Assembly (NCBI GenBank): GCA_964367475.1
Contig: CAYIXQ010000002.1
Span: 1-45,032 of the forward strand
Direction of reading: 5' to 3'
Source of the DNA: an uncultured Candidatus Saccharibacteria bacterium
Lineage (GTDB): Bacteria; Patescibacteriota; Minisyncoccia; 2-02-FULL-40-12; IGHO2-01-FULL-4-A
Length of the DNA: 45,032 nt
The number at the start of each line of letters is the position of its first letter. Positions within the stretch are counted from its first letter, which is position 1. The notes beneath the pieces were generated by a model, which worked only from the letters and a program-made list of their open reading frames with translations, did not search any database and was not told where the DNA came from. A program made the position numbers and the translations under genes. Below are positions 20,478-40,097 of the stretch, in pieces.

Positions 20478-21137
20478 ATGGTCAATCGTGTTATCCGCCA
20501 CCTAGTACTCTCGGATTTTATTTTGAATTTTGCTTTTGGACTGCTGGCGCCAATTTTTGCTGTCTTTATTTTAAAAAGTGTTGAAGGCAGTAGTTTAAAA
20601 GTCATAGGGTTAGCGACTACTTTTTATTGGCTGGCTAGAGTTTCGTCCACAGTGCCCCTCTCCCGTTTTATGGACCGAACCGATGGGGAGAGAGATGAGT
20701 TTTATTTTGTGGTGATTGGCTCCTTCATCATTTCCTCTATTCCGCTTTTTTATTTATTGATAAATCAACCCTGGCATTTATATTTAATCCAATTTATTTA
20801 CGGCATGGCCAATTCAATGGCCGTGCCAGCTTGGCGGATTCTTTTTACCGATCATATTGATCGCGGCAAAACGGGCTATGAGTGGTCATTAGAAGATATT
20901 GCCATTGGTGTCTCGGCGGCTATCAGCGCCTACCTGGGTTCAGTATTAGCCGATACTTTTGGTTTCAAGCTGGTTCTTATTTTACTTGCCATATTTGGCT
21001 ACATATCAACGATGATATTAATTCCTCTTCATCGCGATGCTAAAACCCTAACCCAAATCAAACGAGAACAACGCCTCCAAGCATTAAAATTAAAACGAAA
21101 GTCCATGGCGCCGCTAAAGATAGATGAAGCTCACTAA
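20478..21137 (+). CDS. Half-size MFS-like transporter (6 TM, 219 aa)
   Basis: Six hydrophobic helices with MFS-like loop motif FMDRTDGERDE between TM2 and TM3; no second six-helix bundle. Confidence 0.55.
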   Translation: MVNRVIRHLVLSDFILNFAFGLLAPIFAVFILKSVEGSSLKVIGLATTFYWLARVSSTVPLSRFMDRTDGERDEFYFVVIGSFIISSIPLFYLLINQPWHLYLIQFIYGMANSMAVPAWRILFTDHIDRGKTGYEWSLEDIAIGVSAAISAYLGSVLADTFGFKLVLILLAIFGYISTMILIPLHRDAKTLTQIKREQRLQALKLKRKSMAPLKIDEAH

Positions 21138-21190
21138 AAAACCCCGCGTAAGGCCGGGGTAAGGCTTGGGCTGAAACGAACGTTTAAAAT

Positions 21191-21368
21191 TAGGACTTAC
21201 GCGCTTGAGCCACGAAGCCCAAGGCTATTAGGGCTTACCATGGCTCAAGCCACAAGGGTTTGGCCAATTTCTTTGTTAAAATCTACGTTTGAGACTCGCC
21301 GTACCTGCTAGTACGTCTCGTCTCAAGCCTCGATTTTGCCTTGAACTTGGCCAAACGCGTAAGTCCTA
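21191..21368 (+). mobile_element. Family-1 MITE-like structured repeat, copy A (178 bp)
   Basis: 13-bp TIRs TAGGACTTACGCG/CGCGTAAGTCCTA, flanking direct repeat AAAAT/AAAAT, 2 substitutions vs copy D. Confidence 0.7.
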
Positions 21369-21539
21369 AAAATGATAAGATGAAATCTGGAGGGTGGCCG
21401 GATACTTTTAGTGTAGGTGTGCCGCCGGGCACGCGCACTAATAATGTACCACTCAAAACCACCCCATAAGCTCGAAGGTCATTTTCTTCCCTTTCGAGTT
21501 AATTCATATTAGCTTAAAATATATCACCATGTCAAATTT

Positions 21540-22661
21540 ATGACCATTAAAAGAATTTTACTAGTTGGCGGCAATACCGGAGGGCACGTTTATCCGCTTT
21601 TTGCGGTGGCAGAAAGTTTGGGCGAGGCCGCGAGCCAAAGTAGCATCGAAATAGATATTAGGTTTATGGGAGATGGTGATATATTAAAACAGGAAGCGCA
21701 AAAGTTAGGCCTTAAATCATATCAGATCTTAAATTCTAAATGGCGCAGATATCTTAGTCTTAAAAATTTCATAGATATTTTTAAATTGCCCATCGGCATA
21801 ATCCAAACATTATTTTTCCTCTGGCTTTACATGCCTGATATCATTTTTTCCAAAGGGGGATATGCTTCGCTTTTACCTTGTTTGATTGGCCGGCTCTATT
21901 TAATTCCTATTTTTATTCACGAATCTGACGCTGTACCGGGGATTACCAATAAATTTCTAAGTCATTTTGCCAAAAAAGTTTACCTGGCTCTGACAGTAGC
22001 AGCGAAATATTTTATGCCAGATAAAACAGAAGTCGTCGGGTGCCCCGTTAGAAAAAAAATTTTGCAGGGAGATAGGATTCAAGCCTACACATTTTTCAAG
22101 CTTGATCCTAATAAGCCCACCGTTCTTGTCACCGGGGCTAGTCAGGGAGCCAAGATCGTTAACGACGTTTTGTTACTATCACTGGTAGAGCTATCAAAAA
22201 AGTTTCAAGTGATCCACCAGACGGGTCTAAGGAACTTTGACAATGTAAATGGACAGATAACCAAGTTGCTGGCCGAGGGAAAGAACACATATGCTGAAGG
22301 CCTGAAAAATAATTATAGAATCTATCCGGTATTTGATGTCGAGCAAATGGCCTTAGGATACGCCGCGGCCGATGTCATTATATCACGCAGCGGATCACAA
22401 ATCTTTGAATCGGCCGCGGTCGGCAAGCCGAGTATTGTTATTCCTCTAAAAAATTCTGGGCAGGATCATCAGCGCGCCAATGCGCGAGAATTTGCTAAAT
22501 TTGGCGCTATTGTTATCGAGGAAGATAATCTTACACCCCACATCTTGATCAATGAAATTGAGAAGGCATATGATCAGCGTCAATCTCTTTCCGAAAAAGT
22601 CAGAGTTTTCGCGAATTTAAACTCGGCTGATATAATTGCCAATCAGCTCCTGAATACTTAA
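21540..22661 (+). CDS. murG: Lipid II-forming UDP-GlcNAc transferase MurG
   Basis: N-terminal GGNTGGHVYPL glycine loop, GT28 two-domain layout. Confidence 0.93.
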   Translation: MTIKRILLVGGNTGGHVYPLFAVAESLGEAASQSSIEIDIRFMGDGDILKQEAQKLGLKSYQILNSKWRRYLSLKNFIDIFKLPIGIIQTLFFLWLYMPDIIFSKGGYASLLPCLIGRLYLIPIFIHESDAVPGITNKFLSHFAKKVYLALTVAAKYFMPDKTEVVGCPVRKKILQGDRIQAYTFFKLDPNKPTVLVTGASQGAKIVNDVLLLSLVELSKKFQVIHQTGLRNFDNVNGQITKLLAEGKNTYAEGLKNNYRIYPVFDVEQMALGYAAADVIISRSGSQIFESAAVGKPSIVIPLKNSGQDHQRANAREFAKFGAIVIEEDNLTPHILINEIEKAYDQRQSLSEKVRVFANLNSADIIANQLLNT

Positions 22662-22677
22662 ATATTGAAATATTATA

Positions 22678-22854
22678 TAGGACTTACGCGTTTGGCCAAG
22701 TTCAAGGCAAAATCGAGCATTGGGACGAACCATAGTAATACTATGGTGAGGACCAAGCGGAGATTTTAACGAAGAAATTGGCCAAACCCTTGCGGCTTGA
22801 GCCACGGTAAGCCCTAAAAAACCTGGGCTTCGTGGCTCAAGCACGTAAGTCCTA
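22678..22854 (-). mobile_element. Family-1 repeat, copy B (177 bp, inverted, diverged; different apical hairpin)
   Basis: Same TIRs (one mismatch), same hairpin-1 stem and long stem; central 40 nt unrelated but again palindromic (22729-22747). Confidence 0.65.
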
Positions 22855-22870
22855 ATTTAAACATTTATCT

Positions 22871-23722
22871 ATGACCTGGCAAACCATTGGTTTTGATCAA
22901 ATCAAAGACTTTTTCAGCCAAAACTTGGCGGCTGGCACTTTGTTTAACTCCTATTTTTTTAGCGGTCAGGAAATGATCGGCAAACGGACCTTTGTCCTGG
23001 AGTTAGCCGCCCTGGCGACGGGGAAATTTAGGACTCATGATGTATTATATATAGGAACGGAAAATTCTGATTCAGGCCGCTCGATAAGCATAGACGAAAT
23101 TCGACGCTTAAAAAACTTTGCCGTTTTGAGCCCAATGGGACCAAATTATAAGTTCGCGATTATTAATGATGCTCATCTCATGACCGAAGAGGCGCAAAAC
23201 GCCCTCTTGAAGATTTTAGAAGAACCAAATCGGCAAGTGATTATGATATTAATTTCATCCAATCCTGATAACATTTTGTCTACTGTATCGTCCCGTTGCC
23301 AGGAAATGAGATTTCCTTCACATAGGACCGGAGTTATTTCAAATCTGGTCAATTCCTTAAATCTGTCGGAAGATAGGAAAAGACTACTTATAACTTTAGC
23401 TAACGGCAGAGTGGGACTGGTTAAGCAAGCGATGGTCGAAAGTAATTTGATGGCCGAAGTTGAGAAGTCGGTCAAAGAATTACTGGCGTTAACCAGGGCT
23501 GATTTAGAAACGAAATTAAGTTATGCCCAGAAACTAGGTGATGAAAAAAACCGGGCGCTACTAAGCCGAAAAGTTATGTATTGGCTGCTTTTTGCTAGGA
23601 CTAAAACGGCTGATCCGAAAGGTTATCAAATATTGCGTAATCTCCAAATTTTAAATAAAGTTATTAATCAGCCACAGTATAACACTCGGCTGGCGCTGGA
23701 AAACTTTATGCTTAATATTTAA
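22871..23722 (+). CDS. holB: DNA polymerase III delta-prime subunit
   Basis: AAA+ clamp-loader fold, AQNALLKILEEP box, SRCQ sensor motif. Confidence 0.85.
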   Translation: MTWQTIGFDQIKDFFSQNLAAGTLFNSYFFSGQEMIGKRTFVLELAALATGKFRTHDVLYIGTENSDSGRSISIDEIRRLKNFAVLSPMGPNYKFAIINDAHLMTEEAQNALLKILEEPNRQVIMILISSNPDNILSTVSSRCQEMRFPSHRTGVISNLVNSLNLSEDRKRLLITLANGRVGLVKQAMVESNLMAEVEKSVKELLALTRADLETKLSYAQKLGDEKNRALLSRKVMYWLLFARTKTADPKGYQILRNLQILNKVINQPQYNTRLALENFMLNI

Positions 23723-35029: not shown

Positions 35030-35839
35030 TTGGCCATTTATAAATATCGGGATCAGCTAAGGCAAAAAAAAAGAAAGCAGAAGTTAATGAAAGTAGCGTT
35101 ACTGCTGGTTATTTTTTTATTTGGCATAGCCGGCCTGGTGTACTTACTATTTTTTGCCGGCCTGTTTGAAGTGAAAACGATTAGTGTCAGGGGTAATACT
35201 ATTGTGCCAACAACCGATATTGAGCGTCCAATCAGGGACTGGTTGGATCAAAAAAAGTTTGGTATTGCCCGAAAATCGAATTCTCTCCTTTTTTCTCTAG
35301 AGAACCTTAGGGCAATCATTTCTGCAAATATTTCCACAATTGATTCCATAAAATCCTCACGGACTTCGCTGCATGAAATTATTTTCGAAGTCACGGAACG
35401 AAAGGCGGTAGGAATCTGGTGCTTTCAACCTGCCTCCGCCTGCTATCTATTCGACAAACATGGCACAATCTATGGGCAAACTTTTTTAACGGACGGGCTG
35501 ATTTATATAACGGTAAAAGATTTTCGTAGCCGAGAGATTAAAATCGGCGATTCAATCGCTGACGAGTTTTACCGAAATATCTTATTAGCCAAAGAAGAAT
35601 TGGTGAAGGCGGGGTTAACTGTTATTGAGTTTTCCATACCGGAAAACTCATTCGCTGAATTCCACGCCAAGGTTATAGGTGAGAATGCGCCGTTTTTAGT
35701 AAAGTTGAGCCAAATGACAAATATTCCGGAACAAATCAACTCACTATCACTATTCCTTAAAAAAACATCTGGTTCTACTCGGGCTCTTAATTTTGAATAC
35801 ATTGATCTACGCATCCAAGATAGGATTTATTATAAATAG
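35030..35839 (+). CDS. ftsQ: FtsQ-like cell-division protein with POTRA domain (start TTG 35030 or ATG 35087); the TAG stop is the first 3 nt of repeat copy C
   Basis: Basic N-terminus, one TM, FEVKTISVRGNTIVPTTDIE POTRA signature. Confidence 0.75.
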   Translation: MAIYKYRDQLRQKKRKQKLMKVALLLVIFLFGIAGLVYLLFFAGLFEVKTISVRGNTIVPTTDIERPIRDWLDQKKFGIARKSNSLLFSLENLRAIISANISTIDSIKSSRTSLHEIIFEVTERKAVGIWCFQPASACYLFDKHGTIYGQTFLTDGLIYITVKDFRSREIKIGDSIADEFYRNILLAKEELVKAGLTVIEFSIPENSFAEFHAKVIGENAPFLVKLSQMTNIPEQINSLSLFLKKTSGSTRALNFEYIDLRIQDRIYYK

Positions 35840-36014
35840 GACTTACGCGCTTGAGCCACGAAGCCCAAGGCTATTAGGGCTTATCGTGGCTCAAGCCACA
35901 AGGGTTTGGCCAATTTCTTTGTTAAAATCTACGTTTGAGACTCGCCGTACCTGCTAGTACGTCTCGTCTCAAGCCTCGATTTTGCCTCGAAATTGGCCAA
36001 ACGCGTAAGTCCTA
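35837..36014 (+). mobile_element. Family-1 MITE-like repeat, copy C (178 bp)
   Basis: Perfect TIRs, flanking direct repeat ATAAA/ATAAA, 2 substitutions vs copy D (35988, 35992). Confidence 0.7.
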
Positions 36015-36573: not shown

Positions 36574-38385
36574 TTATTTAATATTGTAAACAAATATTGA
36601 GTTACCGATGATGGTTATGGGTTCGAAGGCCTTAAGCCAATTATTGTAATTAACGTTATTGTGATCGTCGGGAGTGCCTTGTGACCCCTGCAAAAAGGTT
36701 GCCGATACTGCCAACCACCCGTCACTATCGCTGCGTTTTAGAAAATCAGCAGCATTTTTATATTTGGTGGAAGTCAGCCAAATAAACCTATCTTTTAAAT
36801 AATAGGCCGGATCCGCCCAGCCAAAGTAATCCACCTCGATTCTCTTTATATCATTTGCTTCTACCCAACGACTTAGACGCAACAAATCCTGACCCCAGTC
36901 TAAATTGGAATCAACCACATAACGATAGCCGCCCGCCGGTCCACCCGCGATTTGATTAAAATAGGAAAGATAGTAGGGGAAAACTTTTGCATTTTCGTAG
37001 AAGTGCCACGACAAAAGAATGGCCACCGCTGTTGGCACAATTACTGAAACAAATGTTGCCCGATTTAACTGGCCGGCTTTCTCATGTACTTTTTTAATTA
37101 ATTTAGAAATCTGACCGCTAACCAATAATATGGCGAATGGAAAAGTCGGCAGTAAATGCCGCACGCCGATATTGAGATTGCTTTTGATACTGGTCGTCCA
37201 ATAGATCACTAGCCAAATAATCATAGCAAACTCATCAAAGTGATTTCTGATCCAGTCCGCGATGCTTTTCGCTTTAAACTCTGAACTTTTAACTTGAGTA
37301 CCAATCATAAGAATTGCAATCAGTGTGAGTATCCACCAGGCCAAGGTTTCCTTGAGGAAATAAACAATGGGGAAATACGATCGCCAGCCCGCGGCTGAGA
37401 CCTCGCCCAGGAAAAAAGTAGTGTTACCGCCAGTCGAGCGTTGAACAACCATAAGGAGGCCAAGAAAATATTGCCCCAAAGCTCGCAGATATGGTTTATC
37501 GGCCAGCCAGATCACTGTATCAGCCAGAGCGCGGTTGCCAAAGGATCCGAGGAGAAACTGTGTGTCATCCATCTGTCGTTCTACTGGATATCCGTGGACG
37601 TGAAAATAATAAACGGGCCAAACCACTATTACTAAGCCAATAATGGCCACCAACATTACCCGCGTAAACTGCCGCGCCACCGCGTTTATTTTCTCTGTTA
37701 GTTGGCTACCAGCCATTACCCACCCATAGATTATCGCCAAAATCATAAACAAAGGCCCAACCAGAAAAGTGGAAAATTTTGTCAGTAAGGCCACTCCCAA
37801 TGATATTCCAGAAATAAATAAATTTTTGCCGCTTGGGACCCTTAAATACTTAATAAAAAAATAGAGGGCAAACAAAACCCCAAATAAGGCCGGTACGTCC
37901 GTGGTCACAAACCGGGCGTGGGCGATAACGGAAGGTGAAAATGCGAATAGCACTAAAGCGATAATAGCGCCCAGGTACCCATACAAACGTTTTCCCCAGA
38001 GGTAGATCAAAGTGGCCGAAAGGGTAAAAAATAACAGCATTGGAAACTTAACCCAATGCTTAATTGTGTCCGCGTCATTGTCAGAATTAAACATAAAATA
38101 ACGGCCGAATTCCCACTGACCATTAATATCAGTTTGCCAAAATTTTTGTTCGAAAACTGACTGCTTGAAGTCTAAAAATACCAACGGCAGTGCCGCTAGA
38201 TCTTTGGCCAGAGGCGGATGCTCTGGGTTTAAGCGCATATCTTGCCTGGTCAAATAGGAATACCCGGCCCCAATGTGAGGCACCTCGTCCACAATTACCG
38301 AATCATCCCAGGCGCTGGTGATCGCCAAAAAAACGGCAAAAATAATAACAAAAATCGCGAACCAGTCTAGCTTATTTATTTTCAT
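36574..38385 (-). CDS. GT39/PMT-ArnT-like polyprenyl-phosphate-dependent glycosyltransferase (603 aa)
   Basis: Polytopic N-terminal half with first-loop acidic motif DDSVIVDEVPH, large C-terminal soluble domain. Confidence 0.75.
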   Translation of the reverse strand: MKINKLDWFAIFVIIFAVFLAITSAWDDSVIVDEVPHIGAGYSYLTRQDMRLNPEHPPLAKDLAALPLVFLDFKQSVFEQKFWQTDINGQWEFGRYFMFNSDNDADTIKHWVKFPMLLFFTLSATLIYLWGKRLYGYLGAIIALVLFAFSPSVIAHARFVTTDVPALFGVLFALYFFIKYLRVPSGKNLFISGISLGVALLTKFSTFLVGPLFMILAIIYGWVMAGSQLTEKINAVARQFTRVMLVAIIGLVIVVWPVYYFHVHGYPVERQMDDTQFLLGSFGNRALADTVIWLADKPYLRALGQYFLGLLMVVQRSTGGNTTFFLGEVSAAGWRSYFPIVYFLKETLAWWILTLIAILMIGTQVKSSEFKAKSIADWIRNHFDEFAMIIWLVIYWTTSIKSNLNIGVRHLLPTFPFAILLVSGQISKLIKKVHEKAGQLNRATFVSVIVPTAVAILLSWHFYENAKVFPYYLSYFNQIAGGPAGGYRYVVDSNLDWGQDLLRLSRWVEANDIKRIEVDYFGWADPAYYLKDRFIWLTSTKYKNAADFLKRSDSDGWLAVSATFLQGSQGTPDDHNNVNYNNWLKAFEPITIIGNSIFVYNIK

Positions 38386-39916
38386 TTTCCAGTAGAATCA
38401 CTACCGAAGCTTTGTTGTATTGGCCGCTTCGATGTTGTTCCTCGGTTAAATAATAAATATTTTTTTGCGCTTGCTTTTCCGGGGTATATGTATCGGTAAT
38501 GTACATAACGGTTTGAGCCGACATGGGGATATTGTTTATAAGAACGCCGTCGACGTTTACCACCACATATTTTTTAATACTTCTGGGCAATTGTTCCACG
38601 TAATTTCCAATTTCGACGTAGCGGGCACTAAAGGCGGGCGGTACGTTAGGATTGAGGGCCCATTTAAAAAAGTAGCGGTCAAATTCGAAGACCATGCTGG
38701 CTATGAGAAAAATCACTATTACCAAACCAGCAATAAAATTTCCTTCATGAACGTGAAGCTTACCGAGTCTCAAGTCATGAAAATCTCTTGCCCCGTACCA
38801 TTTTCTGACAAATTCATAAATCCACCATAGACCTTCACCGGCAAAAATAAACACCACCGGTGCAAGAATAATAGCTCGCAGAGCGTGGGGCAAACCTTCG
38901 TTTGACAATATAACCGGTAAAAGGCCCAAGAAAAACCATGAGATTAGCAACACTCTAACGGTGGGCAAATGCCTATGTTTATCGTAGTCATCCGCCAGTT
39001 TGATTAAGTTGCGAGTAAAACCGATGATAAAGAAAATACCGACTGGCCAGAAGAGCAGGGGATCGCCAGAGTAATTGTGACGCCAGTTATAATCACCTAC
39101 GAAATTAAACATGGCCAAAGTCTTCGCCAAATTTACTGTCAGACTGACTAACGGATTAGCGGAAGTAAAGATCGAGAGTTGACCGGTTCGTCCCAGGAAA
39201 TCCCCTGGGTTATTGTAGTAGTAGAGTCCAATCGGCAGCGCCACGATAATTACCGTAATCATAAATAGGGCCATTCCTTTTATAAGCCGATCGCGAGTGT
39301 ATTGATATTTCCCATGCGAAAAATCTTTTTTTAGCGAATACCAGTAGGCGAACAACGCCAAAATCATGGCTAGGGGCATAATCCGAAAAGCAATATAAGT
39401 ATAAAAACCTAATCCCCAAAAAATTCCACTGACGAAAAAATAACGCAATCGGTTTTGTTCAAGCCCGCGCCAAAAAAAATAAAATCCCCAAACCAAAAGA
39501 AACGGCGCCATGATGGCCCGAAAGCCAATGCGCGAGAAAAGCGTATGCCAAAAAGAGGTCGCCATTAGAAAACTGGATATGGCCCCGATCTGCCAGTTGA
39601 ATAATTGCCTAGCCAGAAAGTATGTCCCTAATACCGTGAAAACGCCAAATATAGCCGAGACAATTCGCAAAGCCCAAGGATGATTGCCAAAAGTTTTTAG
39701 GGACAGCGCCTGAATATTTATGAATAATCCTTCACGGCCGTTGTTCTCCGGATAAAAAACTTTGAATTCCCCGGTCTGTAGCGCCTCCAGCGCATTATTG
39801 CCATTCATGGCCTCATCCGGATAAAGTCCAGGCGGAATAGATTGGATTCGATAAAACCTAAACACCACCGCTATCGCGACAATAACAAAAACCAATAAAA
39901 ACCTCTTTTTTAACAT
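38372..39916 (-). CDS. GT39/GT83 ArnT-like membrane glycosyltransferase (514 aa)
   Basis: PPGLYPDEAMNGNNA first-loop motif, about 11 TM; 14-nt overlap with the downstream paralogue. Confidence 0.75.
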   Translation of the reverse strand: MLKKRFLLVFVIVAIAVVFRFYRIQSIPPGLYPDEAMNGNNALEALQTGEFKVFYPENNGREGLFINIQALSLKTFGNHPWALRIVSAIFGVFTVLGTYFLARQLFNWQIGAISSFLMATSFWHTLFSRIGFRAIMAPFLLVWGFYFFWRGLEQNRLRYFFVSGIFWGLGFYTYIAFRIMPLAMILALFAYWYSLKKDFSHGKYQYTRDRLIKGMALFMITVIIVALPIGLYYYNNPGDFLGRTGQLSIFTSANPLVSLTVNLAKTLAMFNFVGDYNWRHNYSGDPLLFWPVGIFFIIGFTRNLIKLADDYDKHRHLPTVRVLLISWFFLGLLPVILSNEGLPHALRAIILAPVVFIFAGEGLWWIYEFVRKWYGARDFHDLRLGKLHVHEGNFIAGLVIVIFLIASMVFEFDRYFFKWALNPNVPPAFSARYVEIGNYVEQLPRSIKKYVVVNVDGVLINNIPMSAQTVMYITDTYTPEKQAQKNIYYLTEEQHRSGQYNKASVVILLENENK

Positions 39917-39919
39917 ATT

Positions 39920-40097
39920 TAGGACTTACGCGCTTGAGCCACGAAGCCCAAGGCTATTAGGGCTTATCGTGGCTCAAGCCACAAGGGTTTGGCCAATTTC
40001 TTTGTTAAAATCTACGTTTGAGACTCGCCGTACCTGCTAGTACGTCTCGTCTCAAGCCTCGATTTTGCCTTGAACTTGGCCAAACGCGTAAGTCCTA
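39920..40097 (+). mobile_element. Family-1 MITE-like repeat, copy D (178 bp), 3 nt from the glycosyltransferase start codon
   Basis: Perfect TIRs, flanks ATATT/ATGTT (4 of 5). Confidence 0.7.

Follow-up and report, generated by a model that had tools for sequence, protein, structure and literature searches.

A diverged copy of a probable MITE-like repeat in Patescibacteria, with compensatory change in its stems

Copy B of a small folded repeat occupies positions 22678..22854 on the minus strand of the window, by which we mean the whole 45,032-nt stretch analyzed, contig C2 of the source genome G000 of an uncultured Candidatus Saccharibacteria bacterium (630 kb, 38 contigs, 99% complete, 43% G+C). 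The window contains four copies of the element, A, B, C and D, each 177–178 nt long. Our preferred reading, to which we give a probability of roughly 65%, is that B (177 nt, 85% identical to A) is one old copy, now diverged, of a mobile DNA repeat, small and non-coding, that resembles MITEs, the miniature transposable elements with inverted repeats, and comes nearest in behavior to the repetitive intergenic consensus of enterobacteria (ERIC). The analysis shows that the family is spread over a whole class of Patescibacteria, that it moves or has moved with 5-bp target duplications, and that the evolution of its stems proceeds through compensatory change. Within this unusual family, B is an ordinary member, and an old one: the selection on the fold that the first-pass annotation had proposed holds, and the wholesale swap of the apical hairpin that it had also proposed does not.

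Copy B and its relation to copy A

As we would reconstruct it, the element consists of terminal inverted repeats (TIRs) that pair as a closing stem, an optional hairpin 1, and a long hairpin of roughly 100 nt that contains a conserved clamp. The TIRs of B are 13 nt long, and the 5′ arm (22842..22854), TAGGACTTACGTG on the minus strand, has a single mismatch to the complement of the 3′ arm (22678..22690), CGCGTAAGTCCTA on the same strand. Hairpin 1 (22795..22841, minus strand) is a bulged, GC-rich fold with the loop AGGTTTTTTA in B and AAGGCTATTA in A, and both this hairpin and the GTTTGGCCAA/TTGGCCAAAC stem are retained in B. The long hairpin, or hairpin 2 (22689..22789, minus strand), is the conserved core of the family. 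Within it, two nearly invariant clamp arms read on the minus strand as TTCTTCGTTAAAA (5′ arm, 22764..22776, with exact matches in other phyla) and TTTTGCCTTGAAC (3′ arm, 22700..22712, also matched in other phyla), and the apical module (22720..22756, minus strand) is made of a basal stem, an internal loop and an apical stem-loop, with a plus-strand palindrome at 22729-22747. The annotation had described the TIRs, the retained stems, the differing loop and the palindrome correctly. The predicted fold of B has an energy of −85.1 kcal/mol, compared with −45.4 ± 3.9 in 200 shuffled sequences (z = −10.3), none of which folded as well.

The claim that the apex of B had been replaced entirely by unrelated sequence fails on alignment. 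The 38-nt apical module of B aligns to that of A with one 1-nt indel and 24 of the 38 columns identical; B is thus not a scaffold carrying a foreign tip, and its apex is homologous to that of A and represents the majority allele of a covarying stem. The two copies differ at 26 positions, of which 14 fall within the 38-nt apex and 12 in the remaining 140 nt (Fisher p = 7e-5), and the apical columns that differ between them are the most variable columns in the family as a whole. The changes in the apex include paired double changes, twice from G–C to A–T and once from A–T to G–C. The difference between B and A would have arisen by ordinary substitution in the part of the hairpin least constrained in sequence but constrained in structure, and exchange between sublineages with a common 5′ module may have added to it. 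The census of apical modules called for in the annotation gave 69 distinct stem-loops among 107 sequences, which form a continuum. Covariation was present, as described below, and B was not a chimera of two unrelated repeats.

We considered whether B or A is a recombinant, with sublineages exchanging the 5′ module, the long hairpin or the tip by gene conversion or template switching between copies, so that the contrast of B with A would stem from module exchange and not from drift in place. The 5′ modules of A and B are 89% identical and each other's nearest relatives, but the variable columns of their hairpins are only 62% identical. The hairpins nearest to that of A (85%) are in G065 and G064, where the 5′ modules are 56–58% alike, and those nearest to that of B (82–87%) are in G054, G059, G016 and G090, where the 5′ modules are 52–59% alike; across 80 elements, the identities of 5′ module and hairpin were weakly correlated (r = 0.25). 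The clustering of differences in the apex points the same way, as do the extra hairpins nested in the copies at C1:46266-46560 and L037 and the two arrangements in which Maribacter copies bear the same pair of inner hairpins. On the other hand, columns that do not vary are phylogenetically silent, and rate heterogeneity alone would be expected to make the scaffolds alike; the hairpin of B is also near the family consensus and therefore looks close to many sequences. Its identity reaches 92% with a hairpin from another taxonomic family (L049) and 88% with a further one (L038). Furthermore, the comparison draws on about 40 variable columns, in which convergence by compensatory change may have occurred. 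Recombination between sublineages is, in our view, a tentative explanation and somewhat doubtful. The modular cassette suggested in the annotation does not describe B and A, whose apices are homologous, but modularity is real at a wider scale, in the 5′ modules, the nested hairpins and the tips found in other phyla.

Compensatory change in the long hairpin

Covariation was first scored in the 29 aligned hairpins (seed alignment A3) from which covariance model R1 of the long hairpin was built. In this seed, 25 pairs had changed on both sides, compared with 15.4 ± 1.8 in shuffled alignments, and the covariation score was 0.336, compared with 0.124 in shuffled alignments and at most 0.097 in slid controls. 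A second set was drawn from 100 sources without the loci of the seed alignment and gave 107 matches, 105 of them distinct; window copies A and B are in both sets. In this larger set, whose alignment was fitted to R1 and so leans towards structure, 90.4% of cells were paired (75.5% in shuffles) and 540 were changed on both sides (150 in shuffles), counts that refer to sequences and not to events, related copies not being independent. Over 33 pairs, there were 76 further pair types (67.1 in shuffles), and the covariation score reached 0.415 (0.146 in shuffles, at most 0.083 in slid controls). None of 500 shuffles reached any of the observed values. The fold of the single strand is supported as being under selection, with covariation beyond the controls, and this part of the earlier proposal stands without the cassette swap that accompanied it.

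The apical stem illustrates the pattern. Among the 105 sequences, its pairs are C–G in 104, A–U in 67 or G–C in 37, U–A in 105 and A–U in 105, and the variable A–U/G–C pair has no unpaired cell. The stem thus occurs as two alleles, C-A-T-A...T-A-T-G in 67 sequences, including B, and C-G-T-A...T-A-C-G in 37, including A, and the tip of B is shown to be the common type of the family. The next pair is G–C in 46 sequences, C–G in 32 and U–A in 23. Both alleles were found together in 14 of the 38 genomes sampled. B thereby offers a view on how the family evolves, with drift in sequence, restoration of pairs and the coexistence of two old alleles of the tip. Fold and clamp would persist because a lineage goes on propagating, or is tolerated, only if it folds as a single strand, and that single strand could be DNA during mobilization, or RNA when the element is co-transcribed with flanking genes.

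Wobble cells were rare, with 38 G.T and 65 A.C among about 3360 cells; they were concentrated in a few pairs and gave no consistent strand signal. A conserved T.G pair, present in 100 of the 105 sequences, favors the forward strand, on which the internal loops are pyrimidine-rich. The scarcity of wobble intermediates raises the question of whether pairing is kept without functional selection, by correction of the quasi-palindrome through intrastrand template switching or by repair. Such correction would fit the abundance of changes on both sides, the lack of a strand preference, and the fact that the most frequently switched pair has a single G.U among 105 sequences. It would also erase mismatches, yet the pyrimidine-rich loops, the T.G pair and a bulged T are conserved; R1 separates the strands by about 60 bits; and the clamp arms are invariant across phyla though they are imperfect complements. 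We therefore regard template switching as a very unlikely source of the pattern.

Distribution of the family and its clamp

In BLAST searches, relatives of the element were found in 28 of 61 related genomes, many of them matching the long hairpin only. R1 matched 67 of the 105 genomes of the order, with about 426 matches in total and no more than 29 in any one genome, and 21 in a 151-genome sample of the class; outside the order these were 17 of 146, in at least 13 other families. Forward matches scored 88–116 bits and reverse ones 29–47. B is the best-scoring copy in its own genome, at 110.9 bits compared with 109.7 and 107.9. Termini of the form TTA[GTA][AG]ACTT...AAGT[TC]CTAA recur across the order, and in other families of the class we observed a short form of about 125 nt, in which arms of 10–12 nt directly surround the long hairpin and hairpin 1 is absent. 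Searching Rfam 15 gave no match at gathering score in the window, and only noise at E values up to 10 on 21100-22950. Literature searches on miniature repeats of Patescibacteria, on RNA motifs with covariation in Parcubacteria and on the motif strings did not find the family, the motif strings returning only unrelated primers.

The clamp, TTCTTCGTTAAAA paired with TTTTGCCTYGAAC, has a conserved pyrimidine 3×3 loop, the T.G pair and the bulged T, and it frames the variable upper stem and tip. We scanned contigs, one genome per species, for the exact pattern of the two invariant 13-nt arms and found 96 stretches, against a chance expectation of about 0.02 (calculated for uniform base composition). 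Among the 80 of these 96 that were listed, 13 came from six organisms outside the candidate phyla radiation, the carriers listed being Maribacter (8 stretches), Arcobacteraceae, Campylobacterales, a gammaproteobacterium, Thiolinea and Labilibaculum. In these Bacteroidota, Campylobacterota and Gammaproteobacteria, the outer stem, tip and ends differ, and the clamp alone is common to them and the Patescibacteria. In Maribacter, two other small hairpins take the place of the tip and are arranged either as X-Y or as the reverse complement of Y followed by X. Maribacter sp. 2-571 carries about 70 copies (139 end-motif matches) of a 130–170-nt TIR repeat with both invariant arms, among them those at loci L304, L319, L327, L328, L331, L360, L364 and L366.

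The clamp might be a functional unit in its own right, a strand-specific docking site on a folded single strand that is shared across phyla, serves a ubiquitous host machine or the mobilizing enzyme, rides in different TIR backbones and tolerates any tip. We hold this to be distinctly unlikely. If true, it would establish a class of mobile elements, new and defined by structure, which spread in genomes without a recognizable transposase and come to rest with the 5′ end at stop or start codons.

Mobility, gene context and comparison with known repeats

The source genome contains 11 full copies in 630 kb and further fragments at contig ends. Ten of the full copies are 97–100% identical to A, and B, at 85%, is the sole copy of its own type. 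Exact 5-bp duplications, of differing sequence, flank 7 of the 11, and in a further two 4 of the 5 positions match; the duplication is unmatched in B (3 of 5) and in the copy at C13:11927. In the window, copies A (21191..21368, plus strand), C (35837..36014, plus strand) and D (39920..40097, plus strand) belong to the recent subfamily and have the duplications AAAAT/AAAAT, ATAAA/ATAAA and ATATT/ATGTT (4 of 5), respectively. Their high identity and intact duplications make A, C and D part of a recent burst, shown to be of another sublineage than B, and the decayed duplication of B and its standing as the only copy of its type make it the older. A 2-bp TA duplication of IS630 type was considered and rejected, as 5-bp duplications fit instead. 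The duplications AGAGA and TGATA are present in other families of the class, and the murG|holB junction, occupied by B in G000, is empty in G035. When tested in other genomes with the element ends set 1 nt too far out, duplications showed no excess over shuffles.

Some copies in the source genome are unusual in structure or setting. At C13:10802-10817, the 16-nt sequence TAGGACTTAAGTCCTA consists of two terminal arms fused with nothing between them and is flanked by GTTTA/GTTTA; this TIR–TIR fusion, directly upstream of another full copy, looks like a remnant of internal deletion. The copy at C1:46266-46560 (L232:1129-1422) is a 295-nt composite in which extra hairpins of 70 and 46 nt are nested. 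In 5 of the 11 copies, a sequence similar to GTTTAAAT lies just upstream of the 5′ end, and many duplications begin with A and end with T, which may reflect an asymmetric target preference. The fragments at contig ends indicate that the repeats break short-read assemblies, and copies can be misread as genes for small RNAs or as riboswitch-like leaders.

The position of the element relative to genes was analyzed for 99 elements with ends called by consensus. In these older copies, the 5′ end was at most 10 nt from the boundary of an open reading frame (ORF) in 63 of 95 that are well bounded and the 3′ end in 6 of 94. In the order, 56 elements were co-oriented with transcription and 39 opposed to it; 37 of the 56 abut a co-oriented stop codon and 26 of the 39 a divergent start codon, and a TAG or TAA inside the terminus is often itself the stop codon. 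Loci with such placement include L072, L045, L098, L080, L105, L082, L112, L052 and L047. The 5′ flank resembles coding DNA, and the 3′ flank is AT-rich. In the genomes with the short form, 24 of 29 copies follow a co-oriented ORF, and 18 of 29 have the stop codon inside or at the 5′ arm. The neighbors are housekeeping genes, often highly expressed, and copies lie inside operons, as at S7|EF-G, groES|groEL, grpE|dnaK and mreB|mreC, so that co-transcription with the neighboring genes is likely. Different genera have copies at shared junctions, namely S7|EF-G and the 5′ sides of bipA, rpsT, groEL and rpmA.

This placement could indicate that the element, or its older copies, is a cis-acting RNA of the host, an intercistronic or 3′ untranslated hairpin with a part in mRNA protection, processing or termination, or in modulating how translation ends or begins, with mobility being secondary and the fold selected at each locus. 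The adherence of 5′ ends to stop and start codons, the position of the short-form copies, the shared junctions and the expression of the neighboring genes all agree with such a role, and ERIC at 3′ ends is described as altering mRNA decay via RNase E (PMC3184786, PMC10969869). However, copies at the same junction in different genera have a distance of 0.284, compared with 0.259 for copies at other junctions in the same genus and a background of 0.312; same-locus copies are thus no more alike than same-genus copies elsewhere, so the loci have been recolonized or homogenized and are not conserved orthologues. We accordingly rejected ancient orthologous retention at these junctions. The occurrence of both orientations to transcription also speaks against a cis-acting role, as do the lack of enrichment of G.U pairs, the 12 copies in G000 that ignore the placement rule, and the presence of the clamp in unrelated hosts across phyla. 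A scan for consensus promoters and terminators found no more sites than in shuffles. We judge a host cis-acting RNA to be an unlikely account of the family as a whole.

Under our preferred reading, that of a mobile repeat, the element would be mobilized in trans by an enzyme making 5-bp staggered cuts. Several results weigh against it, among them those of the search for such an enzyme. There was no transposase among 186 flanking ORFs. The IS701-type family PF13546 was found in 1 of 105 genomes of the order (G095), with none in G000 and none in the 67 that carry the element; similarly, NF049999 exceeded its cut-off in G095 only, 1 of 105, and not in G000 despite the recent burst. DDE_Tnp_1 exceeded its cut-off in 9 of the 105 genomes, none of them in the family of G000, and searches for rve, DDE_3, mutator and TnpB found no match in G000. 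Among the genes and loci searched, a search that is not exhaustive, there was no autonomous partner with the same ends. B itself has no intact target duplication, and its own insertion is deduced from the family. The placement of 5′ ends is not explained by plain selfish DNA, and the 12 copies in G000 depart from it. Finally, the covariation counts are those of related sequences, and the rare wobble cells are compatible with perfect complementarity being restored by a mechanism free of selection and, lacking a strand signal, do not tell RNA from single-stranded DNA.

The mobility genes that we identified in G000, by eight single-family Pfam searches that could miss a transposase of another family, are one IS110-type gene, two Y1 genes, one reverse transcriptase gene and one Xer-like tyrosine recombinase gene. 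The IS110-type DEDD recombinase gene (G000:C12:17671-18147, in a 381-aa ORF) is 1.7 kb from an element copy and the reverse transcriptase gene (G000:C36:1003-1599, in a 361-aa ORF) is on C36; no link to the element was found for either. An IS701-type partner was rejected, as the sole genome of the order with such a transposase, G095, lacks the element. The IS701-like element at G095:C73 starts TAGTACTAC..., compared with TAGGACTTAC... in our element, a loose likeness of 8 of 10 positions with a gap that was assessed against G095:C73 only. No element-like ends were found at the 9 DDE-transposase loci of the order. The Maribacter genome has no DDE_5 and no IS701-type transposase, and its two TIR pairs that lie 2–2.5 kb apart enclose DinB-like, epimerase, CYTH and acyltransferase genes and no transposase.

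The Y1 genes bring to mind an element similar to repetitive extragenic palindromes (REPs) and REPINs, mobilized as folded single-stranded DNA by a Y1 transposase of the RAYT or IS200 type. The IS200-type gene at G000:C1:46639-47001 (147 aa) is 79 nt from the C1 composite, a second Y1-like gene is present in G000, and 53 of the 105 genomes of the order carry Y1 genes. A few of these are of IS200 size (145–167 aa); besides these, the 53 genomes each have 1–8 copies of ORFs of about 205–310 aa that match only positions 40-119 of the Y1_Tnp model, a Y1-like family present in multiple copies in such tiny genomes. The conserved strand asymmetry and structure would fit such a mechanism, as would the uniform orientation of copies within contigs (18 of 18 on the minus strand in G229; 7 of 7 on C4 and 6 of 6 on C3 in G179), which is expected of strand-specific mechanisms acting on single-stranded DNA. 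Of 31 Y1 loci, however, only 1 had an R1 match within 1.5 kb, and co-occurrence was weak, with both found in 39 genomes, Y1 only in 14, the element only in 28 and neither in 24. The Y1 gene on C1 has subterminal hairpins of its own, CTACGGGCTTCCGCCCGTAG and CTGCGGGCTGCCGCCCGCAG, that are unlike the element. Variable 5-bp target duplications are present in the family, and Y1 transposases are not known to make them. Mobilization by Y1 is, on this evidence, highly improbable. The contig-wide orientation may reflect which way replication or transcription runs; of 13 copies examined in G229, 4 keep it despite an opposed adjacent gene.

As a mobile repeat, the element has the TIRs, the 5-bp duplications and the small, non-coding, dispersed copies of a MITE, and no autonomous relative with the same ends was found. 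By analogy, it resembles ERIC and Correia most in behavior. In PMC3184786 and PMC10969869, ERIC is described as a small non-coding imperfect palindrome, intergenic and co-transcribed, often at the 3′ ends of genes, kept across genera and families at greatly varying copy number, without an established cognate transposase and with RNase E effects on mRNA. The element shares with ERIC, also known as the intergenic repeat unit (IRU; 127 bp, MITE-like), the small non-coding palindrome, the co-transcribed position and the lack of a transposase found, a likeness in description only. The two are presumably unrelated in sequence and belong to different host phyla, and ERIC has TA flanks where our element has 5-bp duplications. 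Also unlike ERIC, it has a three-part fold with an optional hairpin, an invariant cross-phylum clamp and covariation on more than 100 copies. Larger ERIC variants with internal insertions were reportedly described by Wilson and Sharp in 2006.

The Correia repeats of Neisseria (NEMIS, CREE) are presented in the same papers as TIR-bounded elements of 100–160 bp that fold through their ends, are co-transcribed and cleaved by RNase III, lie beside gene starts or ends and have no known transposase (PMC3184786, PMC10969869). They are restricted to one genus and are marked by TIRs of 26 bp, a duplicated TA, and IHF and promoter motifs, whereas the ends of our element vary by lineage and its internal motif is invariant. 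MITEs of the IS701 family (ISAba11/ISPlag1 group) have the 5-bp target duplication in common with it, with the transposase in G095 only. REP, BIME and REPIN sequences with RAYT are dispersed extragenic palindromes, often after stop codons, long conserved and with structure-dependent biology (PMC3116915, PMC3733652). Our element, in contrast, lacks an association with Y1 and has target duplications and true TIRs, and is much longer, with conserved internal loops. Integron attC sites are recognized by shape as a folded single strand, with asymmetric unpaired bases setting the strand and a variable terminal structure forming the tip. The comparison with attC is an analogy only: copies of our element are dispersed with duplications and do not form cassette arrays, and the core-site consensus was not matched by eye.

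Patescibacteria have genomes of 0.5–1 Mb with almost no recognizable transposases, yet a repeat with a class-wide fold is present in them at up to about 29 copies. This raises the questions of what moves the element, what reads the clamp and why the surviving copies hug the stop and start codons of housekeeping genes. If Maribacter sp. 2-571 can be grown, as a carrier it would make these questions testable at the bench.

In the window, murG (21540..22661, plus strand; Pfam Glyco_transf_28 and Glyco_tran_28_C, the N- and C-terminal domains) is flanked by the 3′ ends of A and B and bracketed by them in inverted orientation, as the annotation had noted. A composite transposon A-murG-B was considered and rejected: A is flanked by a 5-bp duplication of its own, and the sequences on the outer sides of A and B are unmatched, leaving no sign of such a unit. 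On the other side of B, a DNA polymerase III delta′-like gene (22871..23722, plus strand; Pfam DNA_pol3_delta2) starts 16 nt from the 5′ end of the copy. TAG, the first three bases of copy C, is the stop codon of the ORF at 35030-35839, and the divergent gene at 38372-39916 starts 3 nt from the 5′ end of copy D. Elsewhere in the family, at L094 and L162 in two genomes, the element adjoins 5S rRNA-like sequence and has a LAGLIDADG endonuclease ORF on its 5′ side, which probably reflects the context of an rRNA-operon intron.

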